A DNA stretch of 64,000 nucleotides from the IMG/VR virus record IMGVR_UViG_3300042114_000045, positions 1-64,000 of that record; one strand, 5' to 3'. This document shows, piece after piece, positions 50,802 to 63,939 of this stretch. A program made the translations under genes and the position numbers. Under the pieces are notes generated by a model, which saw only the letters and a list, made by a program, of their open reading frames with translations, did not search any database and had not been told where the DNA came from. This DNA comes from a virus. How positions within the stretch are numbered: the stretch's first letter is position 1; each line of letters opens with the position of its first letter.

Positions 50802-50875
50802 TGGTTCGGATATAGAGAATCGAACTCTAACCTCAGCTTCCCAAAAGCCGTGTGCTACCATAACACTTTATCCAA
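50802..50875 (-). tRNA. tRNA-Pro(TGG)
   Basis: Cloverleaf, loop TT-TGG-GA, encoded CCA. Confidence 0.85.
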
Positions 50876-50878
50876 ATA

Positions 50879-50954
50879 TGGTGCTACCAACAGGGATCGA
50901 ACCTGTGACACTAGGATTTTCAATCCTATGCTCTACCATCTGAGCTACAATAGC
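50879..50954 (-). tRNA. tRNA-Phe(GAA)
   Basis: Loop TT-GAA-AA, CCA; three G-U pairs in the acceptor stem. Confidence 0.85.
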
Positions 50955-50955
50955 A

Positions 50956-51032
50956 TGGTGGAATATATCGGATTCGAACCGATCACCTCTAGCGTGCAAA
51001 GCTAGCGCTCTACCAAAATGAGCTAATACCCC
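50956..51032 (-). tRNA. tRNA-Ala(TGC)
   Basis: Loop TT-TGC-AC, G3-U70, CCA. Confidence 0.9.
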
Positions 51033-51042
51033 TTATAAAAAT

Positions 51043-51119
51043 TGGTTGTTCCATAAGGACTTGAACCTTAAACCTCTCGATTATCAACCGAACGCTCTGA
51101 CCAATTGAGCTATGGAACA
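51043..51119 (-). tRNA. tRNA-Ile(GAT)
   Basis: Loop TT-GAT-AA, CCA. Confidence 0.9.
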
Positions 51120-51121
51120 TT

Positions 51122-51197
51122 TGGCACTCCTAATCGGATTCGAACCGATATGAGCTCCTGGAAAGGGAGCCATCCTAAACCATTAGATGATAGGAGC
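51122..51197 (-). tRNA. tRNA-Glu(TTC)
   Basis: Loop CT-TTC-CA, G discriminator, Glu-type D arm, CCA. Confidence 0.8.
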
Positions 51198-51199
51198 AT

Positions 51200-51273
51200 T
51201 GGCTCTCTAGGTAGGTATCGAACCTACGACTTCCCTTTAACAGAGGGATGCTTGACCTTCAAGCTACTAGAGA
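51200..51273 (-). tRNA. tRNA-Asn(GTT)
   Basis: Loop CT-GTT-AA, CCA. Confidence 0.9.
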
Positions 51274-51274
51274 A

Positions 51275-51351
51275 TGGGGTAATCGACGAGACTCGAACTC
51301 GCAACATTCAGGATCACAACCTGACGCCTCTACCATTGGGCTACGACTAAC
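51275..51351 (-). tRNA. tRNA-His(GTG)
   Basis: Loop TT-GTG-AT, C discriminator, CCA. Confidence 0.85.
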
Positions 51352-51358
51352 ATAAATT

Positions 51359-51442
51359 TGGTGCGGAAGGAGAGACTCGAACTCTCACGCCTTTCAGCAC
51401 TGGTTTCTAAGACCAGATTGGCTACCATTACAACACTCCCGC
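51359..51442 (-). tRNA. tRNA-Leu(TAG)
   Basis: Loop CT-TAG-AA, long variable arm, CCA. Confidence 0.9.
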
Positions 51443-51443
51443 A

Positions 51444-51517
51444 TGGATCGAGGACCAGGGTTCGAACCTGGATTCGCAACTTCAAAGGCTGCTGTCCTAC
51501 CATTAGACGATCCTCGA
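51444..51517 (-). tRNA. tRNA-Gln(TTG)
   Basis: Loop CT-TTG-AA, CCA. Confidence 0.85.
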
Positions 51518-51520
51518 ATA

Positions 51521-51596
51521 TGGAGCTCAATATCAGAATCGAACTGATTATCTCCTGGTTACAAATCAGGCGCTTCGCCAGCAAAGCTTATCAAGC
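51521..51596 (-). tRNA. tRNA-Thr(TGT)
   Basis: Loop TT-TGT-AA, CCA. Confidence 0.85.
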
Positions 51597-60110: not shown

Positions 60111-60473
60111 ATGGAAATAGTGATAGTTCTTTTTTTCGTTGGTTGTGCCATTGCATTATACAATGAAAGTACTAAGTATAGCAAAGAAAAACCTGCACCC
60201 AAATTCGATAAAGGACTATATAGAATTGCTAGTATAGATTATAAGATGTATATTATGTCACCAGAATGGTACGCAAAAAAGATACAAAGATTAGTACTAG
60301 ACAACTATACCTGTCAACGATGTGGAAGTAAAGAATTCTTAGAGGTTCATCATAAAACCTACGAGAATTTAGGTAAAGAACAAATGGAAGATTTAGCTAC
60401 GGTGTGTAGAACTTGTCATCAAGCAATACACGATAAGTATGGAAGGAAAGGGAATTACTTTCCACTAAACTAA
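60111..60473 (+). CDS. HNH endonuclease with an N-terminal hydrophobic segment
   Basis: CQRCG...LEVHH.TY.......L..VC..CH..IH. Confidence 0.8.
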   Translation: MEIVIVLFFVGCAIALYNESTKYSKEKPAPKFDKGLYRIASIDYKMYIMSPEWYAKKIQRLVLDNYTCQRCGSKEFLEVHHKTYENLGKEQMEDLATVCRTCHQAIHDKYGRKGNYFPLN

Positions 60474-60757: not shown

Positions 60758-61753
60758 ATGACATCATTTAGTGAAATAAGAAGTAGATGTAGTGATTTTG
60801 ATCAGCTAAACGACTATATGAGAGAGCTAGATTTACTAGATTACTTTTCAGCAGAAGACTTATTTACACACTTTGTTTATACAGGTATTACTGAACCTGA
60901 TGCATCATGCAGAACTATGTTATCTGATATATATTATAGTTTACCAGATGATGCTGAAGAACAATATCTAATACAAGGTTATCAATCTGCTATAAATAAA
61001 TTTAGAACTTTCGATGCAATGTGGGATACAATACTTGGATTAGATTTAAGTAATTTTGACTATGATGGTATTTCATATATATCAATATACTTTGAATTTG
61101 CAAATAGTGTAAAACTTGAAGCACCATTCCCTGATATGAAACGTCTATTTTTAGAGCATATTAAAAAAGAGTATGGTATTGAATTAGAAGAGGAGAACAA
61201 TGTGATTAACAGTCAAACAGGAAGATACGAAGTAGGTACACCAAAATTAGCTAGCGGTGGAATAATAGTAAATAACAACGGGAGAAAAACGATGAAACAA
61301 ACGATTATGGGATTAGGGGAACAAAATAAAGACAACGCACTTGCAGTAGCAAGAGTAACTGCTGGTAAAGCACTAAACAAAAAGTTAGTAAAACTTATTA
61401 AACCAAAACTACCATTTCCTATTAACGGTCTTGCAGACTCTGGATTTGCTCCAGTTATTATTGCTAACGCAGTTGCATTTGCAATTAAACAATACACAAC
61501 AAATGAAAGAGCAAACACTATAGCCGACTTAATGCTAGAAGCAGCAGCGTTTCAATTAGCAGGTTCATTCAATCTTGATGATATGCTTGAAGATTTGATT
61601 GATGGTATTGCATTACCAGGTGCTGTAGCTACGGTAGATTTGAATGCTATGTCTGTTACCGACTTAAAAACATTAGCTAAAACTAACAATATTGATATTG
61701 CTGGTTTAACTTCTAAAGCAGAAATTAGAGACGCTGTTAAAGCAGCTATCTAG
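60758..61753 (+). CDS. Hypothetical protein with a C-terminal Rho-N/HeH-like domain; possible internal start at 61292
   Basis: DLNAMSVTDLKTLAK...I.....KAEI; GGAG SD before the internal MKQ. Confidence 0.6.
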   Translation: MTSFSEIRSRCSDFDQLNDYMRELDLLDYFSAEDLFTHFVYTGITEPDASCRTMLSDIYYSLPDDAEEQYLIQGYQSAINKFRTFDAMWDTILGLDLSNFDYDGISYISIYFEFANSVKLEAPFPDMKRLFLEHIKKEYGIELEEENNVINSQTGRYEVGTPKLASGGIIVNNNGRKTMKQTIMGLGEQNKDNALAVARVTAGKALNKKLVKLIKPKLPFPINGLADSGFAPVIIANAVAFAIKQYTTNERANTIADLMLEAAAFQLAGSFNLDDMLEDLIDGIALPGAVATVDLNAMSVTDLKTLAKTNNIDIAGLTSKAEIRDAVKAAI

Positions 61754-62039: not shown

Positions 62040-62600
62040 ATGGATATTATACTAGCATTTATTGCAGGTGCAGTGTGGTATGAGTTACTATTCCTGGTAG
62101 TTCTAGGGATAGTGTTTATAGTATCAATAGCTGAAGAAAGTTCTTTCTGGTTAATTGTAGTAACGGCTCTGTACCTACTGATATTTGGACATCCACTTGA
62201 ACTGCTAGAACAATACTGGTATTATGTACCTATGTATATCGTATTAGGATTACTATGGTCTGTGTTTAAACATTCTGTTGTAGCAAAAGAGATAACAGTA
62301 AGTGCGTTTAAAAGATTCTATACAGATAAAATTATACCAGAAGAAGGTACACATCAGTATAACAAAAACAAAGAATATCTTAGTAGGGAAATTAAGGATA
62401 AGCTTGAGTATAGATCAAGTGTTGATGCAAAACTATATTGGGTACTATTATTCCCAATATCTGTAACAGGTTACTTATTTGGAGATATGCTTAAAAATAT
62501 TATCAACAAACTAGGCGTAGTTTATACCAGTATTACTAATAAGATTATTCAATCTCAATTTGATACGATATATCCAACGAAACAAAAAACAACAGTTTAA
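62040..62600 (+). CDS. Membrane protein
   Basis: Multiple TM segments. Confidence 0.65.
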   Translation: MDIILAFIAGAVWYELLFLVVLGIVFIVSIAEESSFWLIVVTALYLLIFGHPLELLEQYWYYVPMYIVLGLLWSVFKHSVVAKEITVSAFKRFYTDKIIPEEGTHQYNKNKEYLSREIKDKLEYRSSVDAKLYWVLLFPISVTGYLFGDMLKNIINKLGVVYTSITNKIIQSQFDTIYPTKQKTTV

Positions 62601-62730
62601 AAACTACGGTTGTGGTATGCATACTCCTACTGATTAACTAGACTTGAAGATAAGTCTGACCGGTACCGATCCTATTAAGTTAGGTTTAATCAATGGCTCC
62701 TCAGCATTCTCTGAGGACTAGTATATGATA

Positions 62731-62811
62731 CTGCTATACAACCTCTGGAAGCGGAGGATCTTGGAGAGACTGGGATACTGGTTGATGTTCGATTCGTCGT
62801 ATAGTAGTACA
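62731..62811 (+). ncRNA. tRNA-like element (acceptor-like stem and T-arm, no CCA)
   Basis: CTGCTATA/TATAGTAG stem; TGATG-TTCGATT-CGTCG. Confidence 0.45.
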
Positions 62812-62924
62812 ATGTACTATCTTTAACTGCTCTGGAATTGATCACTGGAGTGTCATGGAGACTTATGAACGTTAAATACGTCATTGTTTATATACCGATG
62901 AAAGCTAAATCGGTATATCTTTTA

Positions 62925-62994
62925 TGTACATTTAGCTCAGTTGGTAGAGCGTCTCGCGAGGTGTCGTTGGTTCGAGTCCAACAATGTACAACCA
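62925..62994 (+). ncRNA. tRNA-like RNA lacking an anticodon loop
   Basis: Perfect acceptor TGTACAT/ATGTACA-A-CCA, canonical D and T arms; anticodon arm reduced to TCTC-GC-GAGG. Confidence 0.75.
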
Positions 62995-63240
62995 ACATAG
63001 GTTTATATATGCAAAGTCCCGTATGAGCTCTGGCAAAAGTATGAGTAGCTTATGATACTTCGGGTTCGCTGTAAATTCTAGATCGTCTAAAGAAACACAG
63101 TAGCATCCGTACGCTCTGGATGTGAAGCAGTGCTACAGTGCTTAATCTGTAGAAGACATCTCTATATTTTGTAATTGAATAGATGAATAGGTGTGATGGT
63201 AACGAGCACCTGTAAAATAAATATCGTGCCACCTTATATA

Positions 63241-63365
63241 TGATGGTCTGGCGAAATTGGGAAACGCTTGGGTATAGATACTCATTCTGTAGGTTCGACT
63301 CCTACTAGGAATTAATTACTCCGAATATGGTAAGTTTTCAGGTTCAACTCCTGAGTCCATCATCA
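63241..63365 (+). ncRNA. tRNA-like RNA with two T-arms
   Basis: TGATGG/CCATCA stem, D arm, GTAGG-TTCGACT-CCTAC and TCAGG-TTCAACT-CCTGA. Confidence 0.55.
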
Positions 63366-63371
63366 TTTTTA

Positions 63372-63450
63372 TATAGCTATAGTTTAACTGGGTAAAACCG
63401 TCGACATTATGGAGGCAAGATATAGGTTCAAATCCTATTAGTTATGTCCA
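63372..63450 (+). ncRNA. tRNA-like RNA with an irregular anticodon arm
   Basis: Acceptor, D arm GTTT..AAAC, T arm ATAGG-TTCAAAT-CCTAT, CCA; no canonical anticodon stem-loop. Confidence 0.6.
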
Positions 63451-63572
63451 GAAGATAGAAAGATGCATTAGGTTGTGTAGAGTCTGCGGAAGCCAGAGTG
63501 TCTGGTAGTCGAATGCATAGGCTGACTCATTGGATTAATTCCAGGCAAGTTCGATTCTTGTCATCTTCACCA
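63451..63572 (+). ncRNA. tRNA-like RNA with a large internal domain
   Basis: GAAGAT/ATCTTC-A-CCA, T arm GGCAAG-TTCGATT-CTTGTC, internal ATGCATT/AATGCAT stem. Confidence 0.6.
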
Positions 63573-63578
63573 ATATAC

Positions 63579-63664
63579 GCAAGGATATAGTCACTGACAC
63601 ATATTGAAAACATAGGGCGTACAGCTACGTTCCAGAGTAAGTTTGAATCTTACACCTTGCTCCA
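63579..63664 (+). ncRNA. tRNA-like RNA
   Basis: GCAAGG/CCTTGC-T-CCA, T arm GTAAG-TTTGAAT-CTTAC; no D or anticodon consensus. Confidence 0.55.
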
Positions 63665-63939
63665 AATCTAACTTAAAGGAATATAAATGAAGTATCTACT
63701 TATACTAGCTATTATACTAATCCTATCTGGTTGCACAGAAAAAAAGATAGTGCATGTAGACCCAACAACAATAAAGTACCCTCAAATGCCAGAGTTAAAG
63801 ATTGTATGTGATAAACGTGGATACGCTTACTACAAACAATATGTATATACTGAAACATATATATATACTCCGATACTTAGGAACTATGATTCAACATATC
63901 AATTACTATGCAAAGATCTATAATGACACCTTGCTCCAA
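63652..63939 (+). repeat. 14-bp direct repeat ACACCTTGCTCCAA flanking the lipoprotein gene
   Basis: Copies at 63652-63665 and 63926-63939. Confidence 0.8.
63687..63923 (+). CDS. Small lipoprotein
   Basis: Signal peptide with lipobox LSGC; AAGGA SD. Confidence 0.7.
   Translation: MKYLLILAIILILSGCTEKKIVHVDPTTIKYPQMPELKIVCDKRGYAYYKQYVYTETYIYTPILRNYDSTYQLLCKDL

Follow-up and report, generated by a model that had tools for sequence, protein, structure and literature searches.

What are six tRNA-shaped elements, standing in a row without a proper anticodon arm, doing in a phage genome? The window analysed here (positions 1 to 64,000 of the 123-kb virus record IMGVR_UViG_3300042114_000045 in IMG/VR) contains a gene-free stretch of 1,086 nt (62601-63686) that harbors all six, on the + strand only, so that about 1.1 kb of non-coding DNA is retained within a densely coded genome. 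Seven strict T-arms (5-bp stem with a TTYRANY loop) were identified in this stretch, all on the + strand and each followed by a pairing acceptor strand, compared to a mean of 0.034 and a maximum of 2 in 1000 dinucleotide shuffles. All seven T-arm stems show 5/5 pairs while the acceptor stems show 6 or 7 of 7 pairs (scanner), and an acceptor-type stem closes directly onto a T-arm in each of the six elements (fold and scanner). Four elements end in NCCA: element 2 (62991-62994), element 4 (63447-63450), element 5 (63569-63572) and element 6 (63661-63664). In elements 2 and 4 this end follows an 8-bp rather than a 7-bp stem. The sequence-only reading, which had announced at least six tandem acceptor-stem/T-loop elements with four CCA ends, is therefore borne out. 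Elements 3 to 6 are separated by only 0-7 nt and this spacing, together with the encoded NCCA ends, resembles that of the true tRNA cluster of the phage. Acceptor stems and discriminator bases vary from one element to another.

The array is preceded by a leader (62604..62729, + strand) including a 6-bp hairpin (62699-62716). Related contigs start matching at 62604, just past the stop codon (62600) of the upstream ORF, and exhibit two to three differences over 62604-62684. A similar hairpin also precedes an element 3-like module in another contig; a search for it as a repeated promoter motif found a single copy in the genome. Element 1 (62730-62811) folds into a cloverleaf of four arms: an acceptor-type stem of 9-10 bp, two hairpins with 4-nt loops and a T-arm at 62783-62799 (fold z -2.06, and scanner). 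Its tail is ACA instead of CCA. A terminator-like hairpin (62890..62923, + strand; 10-bp stem, 9-nt loop, then C and TTTT; sequence and fold) lies between elements 1 and 2. It was missed by the terminator consensus scan, which accepts loops up to 8 nt and gave, as did the sigma-70 scan, no signal above shuffle level. Element 2 (62925-62994) retains the body of a tRNA: the D-arm and the T-arm (62966-62982) are both canonical, the acceptor stem has 8 bp and is followed by ACCA, but the anticodon arm is shrunk to a 10-nt segment, TCTCGCGAGG. Element 3 (63240-63365; fold and scanner) has an acceptor stem of 7 bp containing a single mismatch. Its D-arm, which shows GGG in the loop, is followed by a 6-bp stem with a 4-nt loop and then by two T-arms (63289-63305 and 63338-63354) separated by a 32-nt spacer; its tail is ATCA. 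In element 4 (63372-63450; ARAGORN and Rfam) the acceptor stem has 8 bp and leads into TCCA; there is a D-arm as well as a T-arm at 63422-63438, but the anticodon region forms no proper stem. Element 5 (63451-63572; fold) combines a 6-bp acceptor stem and a bulged hairpin of about 68 nt, which carries GUCGAAUG at 63508-63515, with a short hairpin, a T-arm at 63545-63561 and a final ACCA. Element 6 (63579-63664; fold) has a 6-bp acceptor stem, a 29-nt unpaired stretch replacing the D-arm, a 7-bp stem with a 4-nt loop, a T-arm (63637-63653) and TCCA. The peculiarities singled out in the sequence-only reading, namely the trimmed anticodon arm of element 2, the two T-arms within 63241-63365, the large insert in 63451-63572 (the bulged hairpin, which replaces both the D- and the anticodon arm) and the missing D-arm in 63579-63664 (fold and scanner), were all recovered.

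Metagenome depth peaks over elements 2 and 3. Two of the runs compared carry an RNA-Seq label but are flagged as probably DNA. Ten joints that go back in the sequence tie the end of a T-arm (62980-63439) to the start of the element 2 D-arm (62932-62933) via 15-35 other letters, and in the seven joints leaving from 62980-62982 the inserted letters are mostly hairpin-forming. The peaks were considered as a signal of the phage and are read instead as tRNA-like or YrlA-like RNAs of other organisms.

The anticodon position is occupied by a stem capped with a 4-nt loop in elements 1, 2, 3 and 6. The same form is observed in a tRNA-like sequence at genome positions 80434-80508, bringing the number of such elements in the genome to five. 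Element 5 has the long bulged hairpin at this position and element 4 no proper arm; none of the six displays a 7-nt anticodon loop. With default settings ARAGORN calls only element 4, as tRNA-??? with the 4-base anticodon tatg, and leaves element 2 uncalled. Loosened settings returned poor models overlapping each other, which were set aside. The threshold of the Rfam tRNA model (RF00005) is passed only by element 2 (55.6 bits) and element 4 (42.7 bits), with a weak partial match for element 3 (16.7 bits) and elements 1, 5 and 6 unlisted. In these alignments the anticodon loop of element 2 has 0 nt and the anticodon arm of element 4 is skipped entirely. The array elements lack the 5-bp anticodon stem and 7-nt loop that RF00005 requires of a working decoder, as the claim that no canonical anticodon arm is present had held. 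It is thus highly improbable that one or more of them are working tRNAs with unusual decoding. Element 4, drawn by ARAGORN with a 4-base anticodon and TCCA and scoring above the Rfam threshold, might act as a frameshift suppressor with an 8-nt anticodon loop, but the anticodon stem drawn contains two non-pairs among five positions, Rfam skips the arm, and the other five elements have neither a 7- nor an 8-nt loop at this position.

Sequences related to the array carry both conserved and replaced parts. A 691-nt related contig retains elements 1, 5 and 6, and one related contig has 167 other letters in place of elements 2 to 4. In element 1 of a related contig the acceptor strands are without change among the differences listed, the T-arm changes preserve pairing and the inner hairpins are remodelled. 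In element 5, one related contig has A-U in place of G-C at 63533:63541, and the encoded CCA is interrupted in relatives. Among the changes listed for element 6, four fall in the unpaired stretch and the one stem change converts G.U to A-U. Overall, six events among those listed preserve pairs (62783; 62796; 62772 with 62779; 63533 with 63541; 63561; 63617) and three break them (62773 with 62778; 63544; 63533 alone in a second contig), all stem-change counts being drawn from 40 of the 79 substitutions and 12 of the 27 indels.

Elements decaying without function, as pseudogenes of a former tRNA cluster, would be expected to accumulate stem mismatches and pairing-blind changes. Provisionally, this is not the pattern observed, all T-stems being paired and 6 of the 9 listed stem events keeping pairs. 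Heterogeneity of form, the missing CCA of elements 1 and 3, the simply disordered anticodon region of element 4, the swap of elements 2 to 4 and the interrupted CCA of element 5 in relatives all favor such decay, as does the absence, by DNA search, of a homologous array from 14 long related IMG/VR genomes, where generic tRNA similarity alone was seen. Set against this are the nearly complete acceptor stems, the 1.1 kb kept in a densely coded genome and the occurrence of the element 2 form in 50 viral loci (36 with perfect acceptor stems, see below). In addition, the capped stem shared by elements 1, 2, 3 and 6 and by the sequence at 80434-80508 supports design over decay. We therefore regard simple decay as unlikely. 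The proposal that selection has acted on structure, as opposed to decay, is supported: stems are intact, most listed changes keep pairs, the 4-nt-loop stem recurs, and a recurrent class of viral sequences, in which stem covariation is strong, includes element 2.

The element 3 unit (63241-63365, with the same boundaries) recurs with other flanks in a 235-nt metagenome contig (word depth 124). The 3' end of element 6 belongs to a 14-nt direct repeat (63652-63665 and 63926-63939, + strand; two exact copies compared to 0.02 expected by chance) that flanks a 78-aa lipoprotein-like ORF (63687-63923), for which lipoprotein-signal matches are weak and nothing else was found. Conserved hairpins occur between elements (fold). 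Credible non-canonical tRNA-like sequences were found in four of the seven related genomes examined. In Alteromonas phage PT15-A5 an anticodon-arm-deleted tRNA occupies the position where AD45-P1 has a tRNA-Met, and pieces of the AD45-P1 array, located at 51.8-53.3 kb of this cultured relative, are also present in unrelated Alteromonas phages. Direct searches gave no match for the array (DNA) or the 981-aa ORF (protein) in the phage collection, for the flanking proteins or exact patterns from elements 2, 5 and 3 in IMG/VR, or for the element 3 pattern in JGI metagenomes, where the pattern from the 78-aa ORF gave 375 matches including no relatives.

The repeated end of element 6, the discrete element 3 module, the shared AD45-P1 pieces and the inter-element hairpins would fit tRNA shapes whose main role is to signal RNase P/Z cutting or to cap transcript ends for neighbouring RNAs, and perhaps also to provide homology anchors for cassette exchange between phages. 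However, module exchange describes how the array evolves and not its function, and elements 3 to 6 adjoin so closely that there is no cargo to release. This role is quite unlikely.

A pattern scan of IMG/VR identified 50 tRNA-like genes without an anticodon arm. The class is defined by canonical D- and T-arms, an acceptor stem of 7 bp and no more than 20 nt from the D-stem to the T-arm GGTTC. This definition was applied to element 2 alone, the other five elements having different bodies. With 18 nt over this distance element 2 falls within the class, and it aligns with 32 of the viral sequences (alignment A3), where 98.9% of cells pair compared to 69.6% in shuffles. The acceptor stem is perfect (7/7 pairs) in 36 of the 50 genes. 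ARAGORN leaves 49 of them uncalled, while the Rfam tRNA model labels as tRNA the 14 such elements within the 18 loci scanned. Scores of the class range from 43 to 55 bits over 58-67 nt (element 2: 55.6 bits over 65 nt). Element 2 and the class are built alike, from a 7-bp acceptor stem and U8-A9 through a canonical D-arm and a short link to a canonical T-arm. Most members, however, have 8-9 nt between the D- and T-stems and no CCA, whereas element 2 has the 10-nt remnant of an anticodon stem and an encoded CCA; members occur singly, in contrast to the phage array. No name of its own for this class was found in the literature searched. These sequence patterns suggest a recurrent type of viral gene, tRNA-like but lacking the anticodon arm. 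Among 28 viral records of at least 30 kb with an element 2-type sequence, none encodes RtcB and two encode RlaP; no repair genes were found in the flanks, and no neighbour family is common to more than 3 of 33 loci. A phage repair module is therefore not a requirement of the class.

Since element 2-type sequences occur in viral records without repair genes of their own, a host target fits them better than a phage partner. The RNAs might then be decoys or sponges, their targets being host factors that bind tRNAs or attack them (anticodon nucleases, acceptor-end modifiers, tRNA sensors). The tRNA body would be kept for binding of the factor, and removal of the loop would prevent both cleavage at that site and decoding. 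Phages are known to supply tRNAs against tRNA-cleaving defences. The short cap replacing the anticodon loop in four of the six elements and in one elsewhere, the intact stems, the differing acceptor stems and discriminator bases, and the location of the array on the non-structural + arm are consistent with such decoys. However, the sequence itself singles out no target, no host, defence system or binding partner is known for the phage, and no published phage tRNA decoy without an anticodon loop was found in the literature searched. A decoy role is a serious rival reading, at a rather low probability. The broader proposition that phages widely encode loop-removed tRNA bodies as uncleavable look-alikes, which would occupy host anticodon nucleases or other enzymes recognising the tRNA body, with six or more stacked beside the repair enzymes of this phage, is a little more doubtful still.

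Outside the array, the genome carries genes for RtcB and RlaP, for a Ro60-like protein and a CCA-adding enzyme, for an RNA ligase and an ATP-dependent ligase, and for a tmRNA. The Ro60-like gene (genome 73676-75094), with three repeats upstream of it, specifies a DUF2828/DUF7788 protein. All ten top PDB matches to the structural model of this protein (pLDDT 83) are Ro60 or TROVE proteins, with Foldseek TM-scores to Ro60 of only 0.35-0.48; a PDB sequence search with this protein returned noise only, so that the likeness is visible by fold search alone. RlaP and RtcB are encoded at 86079-88316. The array had been described as lying apart from the true tRNAs. This is correct for the ten normal tRNAs (50802-51596, - strand; ARAGORN) but not for the + arm beyond the window, which also carries a tRNA-Met, two tRNA-Ser, the tmRNA and four further odd tRNA-like sequences.

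Because the genome encodes the Ro60-like protein, RtcB, RlaP, the CCA-adding enzyme and the RNA ligase, a role as partners in repair is no less likely than one as decoys. The elements are probably protein-binding tRNA mimics, neither working nor simply decayed tRNAs. We tentatively favor, at somewhat less than an even chance, an array of non-decoding tRNA mimics serving as partner RNAs in a conflict over tRNA damage and repair, in the manner of Y RNAs or b7a-tRNA. The six would be genes for tRNA-derived small RNAs that keep the parts recognised by proteins and RNase P (the acceptor/T-arm helix, and the D/T elbow in elements 2 to 4), the anticodon loop having been removed or replaced. They may be co-transcribed with the + strand arm, excised like tRNAs, and act as RNA ligands in this conflict, most likely as partner or scaffold RNAs of the five proteins just named, thereby influencing repair. 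A partner role of this kind has been proposed for YrlA Y RNAs and for the bacterial band-7-associated tRNA. Several observations count against the repair-partner reading. Distances of 10 kb and 22 kb separate the array from the Ro60-like gene and from RlaP and RtcB, respectively, while other candidate partner RNAs lie directly upstream of the Ro60-like gene. There is no Band_7 match in the genome, the YrlA match is low and the element 5 motif is at chance level (see below), and the TM-scores are low. Elements 2 to 4 are absent from one related contig and the element 5 CCA is interrupted in relatives, and the viral class to which element 2 belongs has no need for a phage repair module.

Cleavage of tRNA is a common bacterial means of stopping phages, and the known phage answers are replacement tRNAs and repair enzymes. 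A set of tRNA look-alikes unable to decode, combined with Ro60-like, RtcB, RlaP and CCA-adding proteins, would represent a third kind of answer. Were the broader proposition on uncleavable look-alikes true, the 50 viral loci would offer a first glimpse of a general RNA-based counter-defence. The array would also make testable the part proposed for tRNA-like RNAs in RtcB-type repair.

Among known systems, the b7a-tRNA (band-7-associated tRNA), reportedly predicted by Burroughs and Aravind in 2016, shares with the phage elements tRNA-like genes with canonical D- and T-arms, no anticodon arm, an occasional tandem arrangement and linkage to RtcB and RlaP. It was without experimental validation as of 2018, as stated in 10.1101/312249. 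Of 50 bacterial pattern matches, 12 have a tRNA-like sequence lacking the anticodon arm in an RtcB locus (up to 8 kb). The interval from it to RtcB contains Band_7 and RlaP in locus L236, and Band_7 in L242. In the Bacteroidota loci, unlike in the phage, the two 'acceptor' sides fold into separate hairpins, and the D- and T-arms are connected by a single-stranded linker. Moreover, those RNAs adjoin Band_7 directly upstream, whereas the phage genome is without Band_7.

YrlA (RF02553) is a mimic of tRNA to which Ro60 binds, and its gene lies beside that for RtcB (PMC4201824 and 10.1101/312249). In M. smegmatis it is cut by RNase P and receives CCA, and bacterial Y RNAs carry a GNCGAAN0-1G motif (both from PMC4201824). 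Like this Ro60/Rsr partner, often located beside RtcB, the array consists of tRNA mimics with T-arm, D-arm and acceptor-like stem but no anticodon loop, in a genome that also encodes a Ro60-like protein and RtcB. Element 5 carries a motif of the GNCGAAN0-1G type in a bulged helix, on the strand leading into the T-arm. This motif occurs once in the array (63508-63515) and 15 times genome-wide on that strand compared to 22 in shuffles, a chance level at which the single match is weak. The best match of the Rfam YrlA model (16.6 bits, E 3.8, compared to a gathering threshold of 69) spans the first T-arm of element 3 (63289-63305) and the D-arm of element 4. The topology also differs: YrlA ends in the Ro-binding stem and its acceptor is a closed hairpin, whereas the array elements have their ends at the acceptor stem, and it is the other stem that is closed. 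YrlA is in addition expected next to rsr, while the array is 10 kb from the predicted Ro60-like gene.

The AD45-P1 element (L091:1462-1531) shows a weak match to mascRNA (RF01684; 24.2 bits, E 0.57). The pair G3:U70, the identity rule for alanine, is absent from all six elements in the scanner output. mascRNA is a vertebrate RNA, and tmRNA has a coding part and is charged with alanine, unlike the array. Nevertheless, mascRNA, the tRNA-like domain of tmRNA and the phage elements have in common an acceptor/T-arm helix that provides a handle for processing or recognition, and an anticodon limb that is shortened or replaced.

Six tRNA-shaped elements (el1 to el6, 62730-63664) without a 7-nt anticodon loop lie in the 1,086 nt that separate the stop codon of ORF 62040-62600 from the ORF starting at 63687; all ORFs inside this interval are short and unsupported. 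Seven strict T-arms, defined as 5 paired positions around a TTYRANY loop, occur in this gene-free stretch, all on the + strand and each followed directly 3' by a strand pairing with an upstream 7-mer, against a mean of 0.034 and a maximum of 2 strict T-arms in 1000 dinucleotide shuffles. Genome-wide, 14 of 14 + strand strict T-arms lie inside tRNA or tRNA-like clusters. With default settings ARAGORN calls only el4 in the array ('tRNA-???', with a 4-base anticodon). Two elements, el2 (55.6 bits) and el4 (42.7 bits), pass the Rfam tRNA model, whose alignment leaves 0 nt in the el2 anticodon loop and skips the el4 anticodon arm.

All six elements are on the + strand. el1 (62730-62811) has a closing stem of 9-10 bp, two inner hairpins with 4-nt loops and a T-arm, and lacks CCA. 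el2 (62925-62994) exhibits textbook acceptor, D- and T-arms with an anticodon arm cut down to a 10-nt self-complementary segment. In el3 (63240-63365), the acceptor stem and D-arm are followed by a 6-bp stem capped by a 4-nt loop, two T-arms and an ATCA tail. The acceptor stem, D-arm and T-arm of el4 (63372-63450) surround a disordered middle. In el5 (63451-63572), a bulged hairpin of ~68 nt and a short hairpin are enclosed by the acceptor stem and T-arm. In el6 (63579-63664), the acceptor stem leads into 29 unpaired nt, then a 7-bp stem capped by a 4-nt loop, and finally a T-arm. NCCA 3' ends are found in el2, el4, el5 and el6, as in all true tRNAs of the phage; in el2 and el4 the bases flanking the stem pair with each other, giving 8 bp before NCCA. 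The spacing of el3 to el6 (0-7 nt) is similar to that of the true tRNA cluster; el1 and el2 are separated off by hairpin-bearing spacers, one hairpin being terminator-like (62890-62923). Fold energies of the single sequences do not stand out (z -0.4 to -2.1), and the case for the elements rests on motifs and comparison, not on fold energy. The array is predicted to comprise non-decoding tRNA mimics, which would be processed in the manner of tRNAs and work by binding proteins.

The virus record (122,779 bp, 91% complete, its first 64 kb forming the window) encodes a portal protein sharing 66% identity with its counterpart in Alteromonas phage AD45-P1 and 57-71% with those of 80 IMG/VR contigs. 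Terminase, portal protein and major head protein are carried by the - strand, and gene orientation and GC skew flip near 55 kb; this places the array in the early part of the non-structural, + strand arm. An HNH endonuclease ORF (60111-60473) and a DUF7566 protein (60758-61753) with a weak, below-threshold C-terminal SAP match are located 1-2.6 kb upstream. At 63652-63939, the 3'-terminal 14 nt of el6 recur as an exact copy behind an ORF for a 78-aa lipoprotein-like product; the arrangement looks like an insertion of the ORF at the tRNA-like 3' end, or a copying of the ORF together with it.

DNA, protein and pattern searches of the phage collection, IMG/VR and JGI metagenomes identified no close relative of the array. 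Array words are present in 20 public runs from 9 studies, five of which hold at least half of the sampled words, and contigs of four runs were aligned to the array stretch at 80% likeness. A 691-nt contig (run X8, record 15) keeps el1, with 38 differences and 14 gaps over 62643-920; 167 other letters then replace 62921-63450, followed by el5 and el6 with 19 differences and 2 gaps. A 235-nt contig (run X6, record 11; word depth 124) carries el3 with ends exactly as predicted (63241-63365), and its flanks on both sides are unrelated. From the two contigs it follows that the elements behave like separate units open to exchange.

Variants are described here for the rows listed, 40 of 79 for substitutions and 12 of 27 for indels. 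Among these, pair-preserving stem changes in el1 are 62783 (U.G to C-G), 62796 (U.G to U-A) and 62772 with 62779 (G.U to C-G); those further downstream are 63533 with 63541 (G-C to A-U, X8), 63561 (G.U to G-C) and 63617 (G.U to A-U). Pair-breaking changes among the same rows affect 62773 with 62778 (a loop-closing pair), 63544 (the outer, sixth T-stem pair) and 63533 alone (X6). The listed rows also include four changes in the unpaired stretch of el6, four insertions that remodel the first inner hairpin of el1, and 0 changes in the el1 acceptor strands. A TA insertion behind 63570 breaks up the el5 CCA in both variant contigs, which counts against conservation.

Seven related genomes were examined, whole or in large part. 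Credible non-canonical tRNA-likes are found in four: AD45-P1 (four), G004 (two), G003 and G011 (one each); none is credible in G001, G005 and G007. The AD45-P1 elements stand in a row, in unannotated gaps upstream of its sole annotated tRNA, and pieces of this array recur in unrelated Alteromonas phages. One (L091:1655-1800) folds well (z -3.46) and follows the el5 plan of acceptor stem, long hairpin, short hairpin, T-arm and ACCA. At the position of the AD45-P1 tRNA-Met, phage PT15-A5 (OP481051.1; L129 ~870-935) has a tRNA without an anticodon arm, with a 12-nt gap in its place and intact D- and T-arms. About 150 nt of well-conserved non-coding sequence precede this position in both phages. 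The patchy presence of the elements would fit neutral decay of former tRNAs, an explanation that we regard as improbable; it does not fit the intact stems or the repeated capped-stem form.

A normal tRNA has ~26 nt between D-arm and T-loop. Scanning IMG/VR for the el2 D-arm followed by a T-loop within 8-20 nt gave 51 loci. Among 50 scorable elements (41 distinct), 36 have 7/7 acceptor pairs and 42 at least 6. Rfam scores the 14 of them in the 18 loci scanned as tRNAs of 58-67 nt; ARAGORN makes no call for 49 of the 50, and a tRNA lies within 600 nt of 11. el2 was aligned with 32 of the 41 distinct sequences, leaving out seven with five or fewer acceptor pairs and two others (L133, L163). In this alignment 98.9% of cells pair vs 69.6% in shuffles, the acceptor pairing figures being inflated by row selection; the three variable T-stem pairs, which were not selected for, are 99.4% paired. 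The covariation score is 0.763 vs 0.147 in shuffles and ~0.12 with partners slid, and descent from different parent tRNAs could account for such covariation. That D-stem and T-stem are recurrently linked by 8-9 nt argues for a maintained form. In one IMG/VR contig, a tRNA-like lacking an anticodon arm has an abiF RNA motif (L144:1866-1968; Rfam 39.9 bits, threshold 37) 4 nt upstream.

RtcB is found in 0 and RlaP in 2 of the 28 viral records of at least 30 kb with an el2-type element. No repair genes lie in the flanks of these elements, and any one neighbour gene family is common to at most 3 of 33 loci. The array elements might be decoys, which would fit both the removal of the anticodon loop and the occurrence of the class in phages without repair genes; we consider this unlikely, if less so than decay.

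We tentatively favor, at somewhat less than an even chance, the mimics as partners of the phage's RNA repair system, because of the enzyme set of the genome and bacterial precedents. Beyond the window the genome encodes RlaP (86079-87086), RtcB (87096-88316), an ATP-dependent ligase, a CCA-adding-type enzyme (90427-91674) and an RNA ligase (91833-92918), together with TerC, TerD, TelA and PhoH-PIN proteins. For the structure model of a DUF2828/DUF7788 protein (73676-75094; 24-sequence alignment, pLDDT 83), the ten best PDB matches are Ro60 or TROVE proteins, the Thermus phage phiLo Ro60 among them (E 2e-6 to 5e-4, TM 0.35-0.48). The case for this partnership is weakened by distance (10 kb from array to Ro60-like gene, 22 kb to RlaP/RtcB) and by the viral records of the el2 class, which lack RtcB, mostly lack RlaP, and show neither repair genes in the flanks of the elements nor a widely shared neighbour family.

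The genome also carries a tmRNA and four further odd tRNA-likes. Two of ~122 nt (genome 73040-73162 and 80690-80810) have perfect 7-bp acceptor stems, D- and T-arms, no CCA, and a ~50-nt insert after the D-arm with the common motif CAC-W-GCAA-Y-AAAAC; the second may hide a 4-bp stem and 7-nt loop, read as a UAU anticodon. The first follows a tRNA-Met and precedes the Ro60-like gene. Directly upstream of this gene, three tandem stem-closed elements (73189-73650) are candidates for Y-like partner RNAs; the large internal loop of each bears CTAACAGCA and ACTTT(T)AATT motifs. At 80012-80587, the tmRNA (Rfam 75 bits) and a tRNA-Ser are followed by a tRNA-like with a 4-nt loop closing the anticodon stem and a TCCA end (80434-80508), and by a 32.5-bit tRNA with a CAU anticodon loop and a T-arm without the usual motif (80514-80587).

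Literature searches of main texts yielded no account of phage tRNA-likes lacking an anticodon loop, single or arrayed, and earlier listings are possible; tRNA-like candidates appear in a survey of viral structured RNAs, which nowhere uses the word 'anticodon' (PMC10690425). Jumbo phages combine RtcB, RlaP and CCA-adding enzymes, rarely with a TROVE protein (PMC7824862). Y-like RNAs encoded ahead of a phage Ro60 gene are bound by its product (PMC12135203), and in a Listeria phage the region upstream of an Rsr-like gene holds abundant non-coding RNAs (PMC12282133).

Among prokaryotes (one genome for each of 185,579 species) the el2-class pattern gave 65 loci. Of 50 scorable, 13 have perfect acceptor stems, several identical to viral ones, and another 12, all Bacteroidota, have RtcB in the same locus (up to 8 kb). 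The orders tRNA-like, Band_7, RlaP, RlaP, RtcB (L236) and tRNA-like, Band_7, RtcB (L242) match the band-7-associated tRNA system as described in 10.1101/312249. Unlike el2, the Bacteroidota RNAs carry their own hairpin on each acceptor side, and a tandem arrangement is possible. In two Bacteroidota contigs (L213, L218) a further D-arm begins (ATAGCTC) straight after the band-7-associated tRNA-like, which indicates that tandem arrays of such RNAs can also occur in bacterial RtcB loci.

[quoted passage not shown] Metagenome contigs that probably stem from other organisms (runs X6, X8, X9) carry an el2-like T-arm, then a short hairpin, then an el2-like D-arm, which is the order of YrlA.
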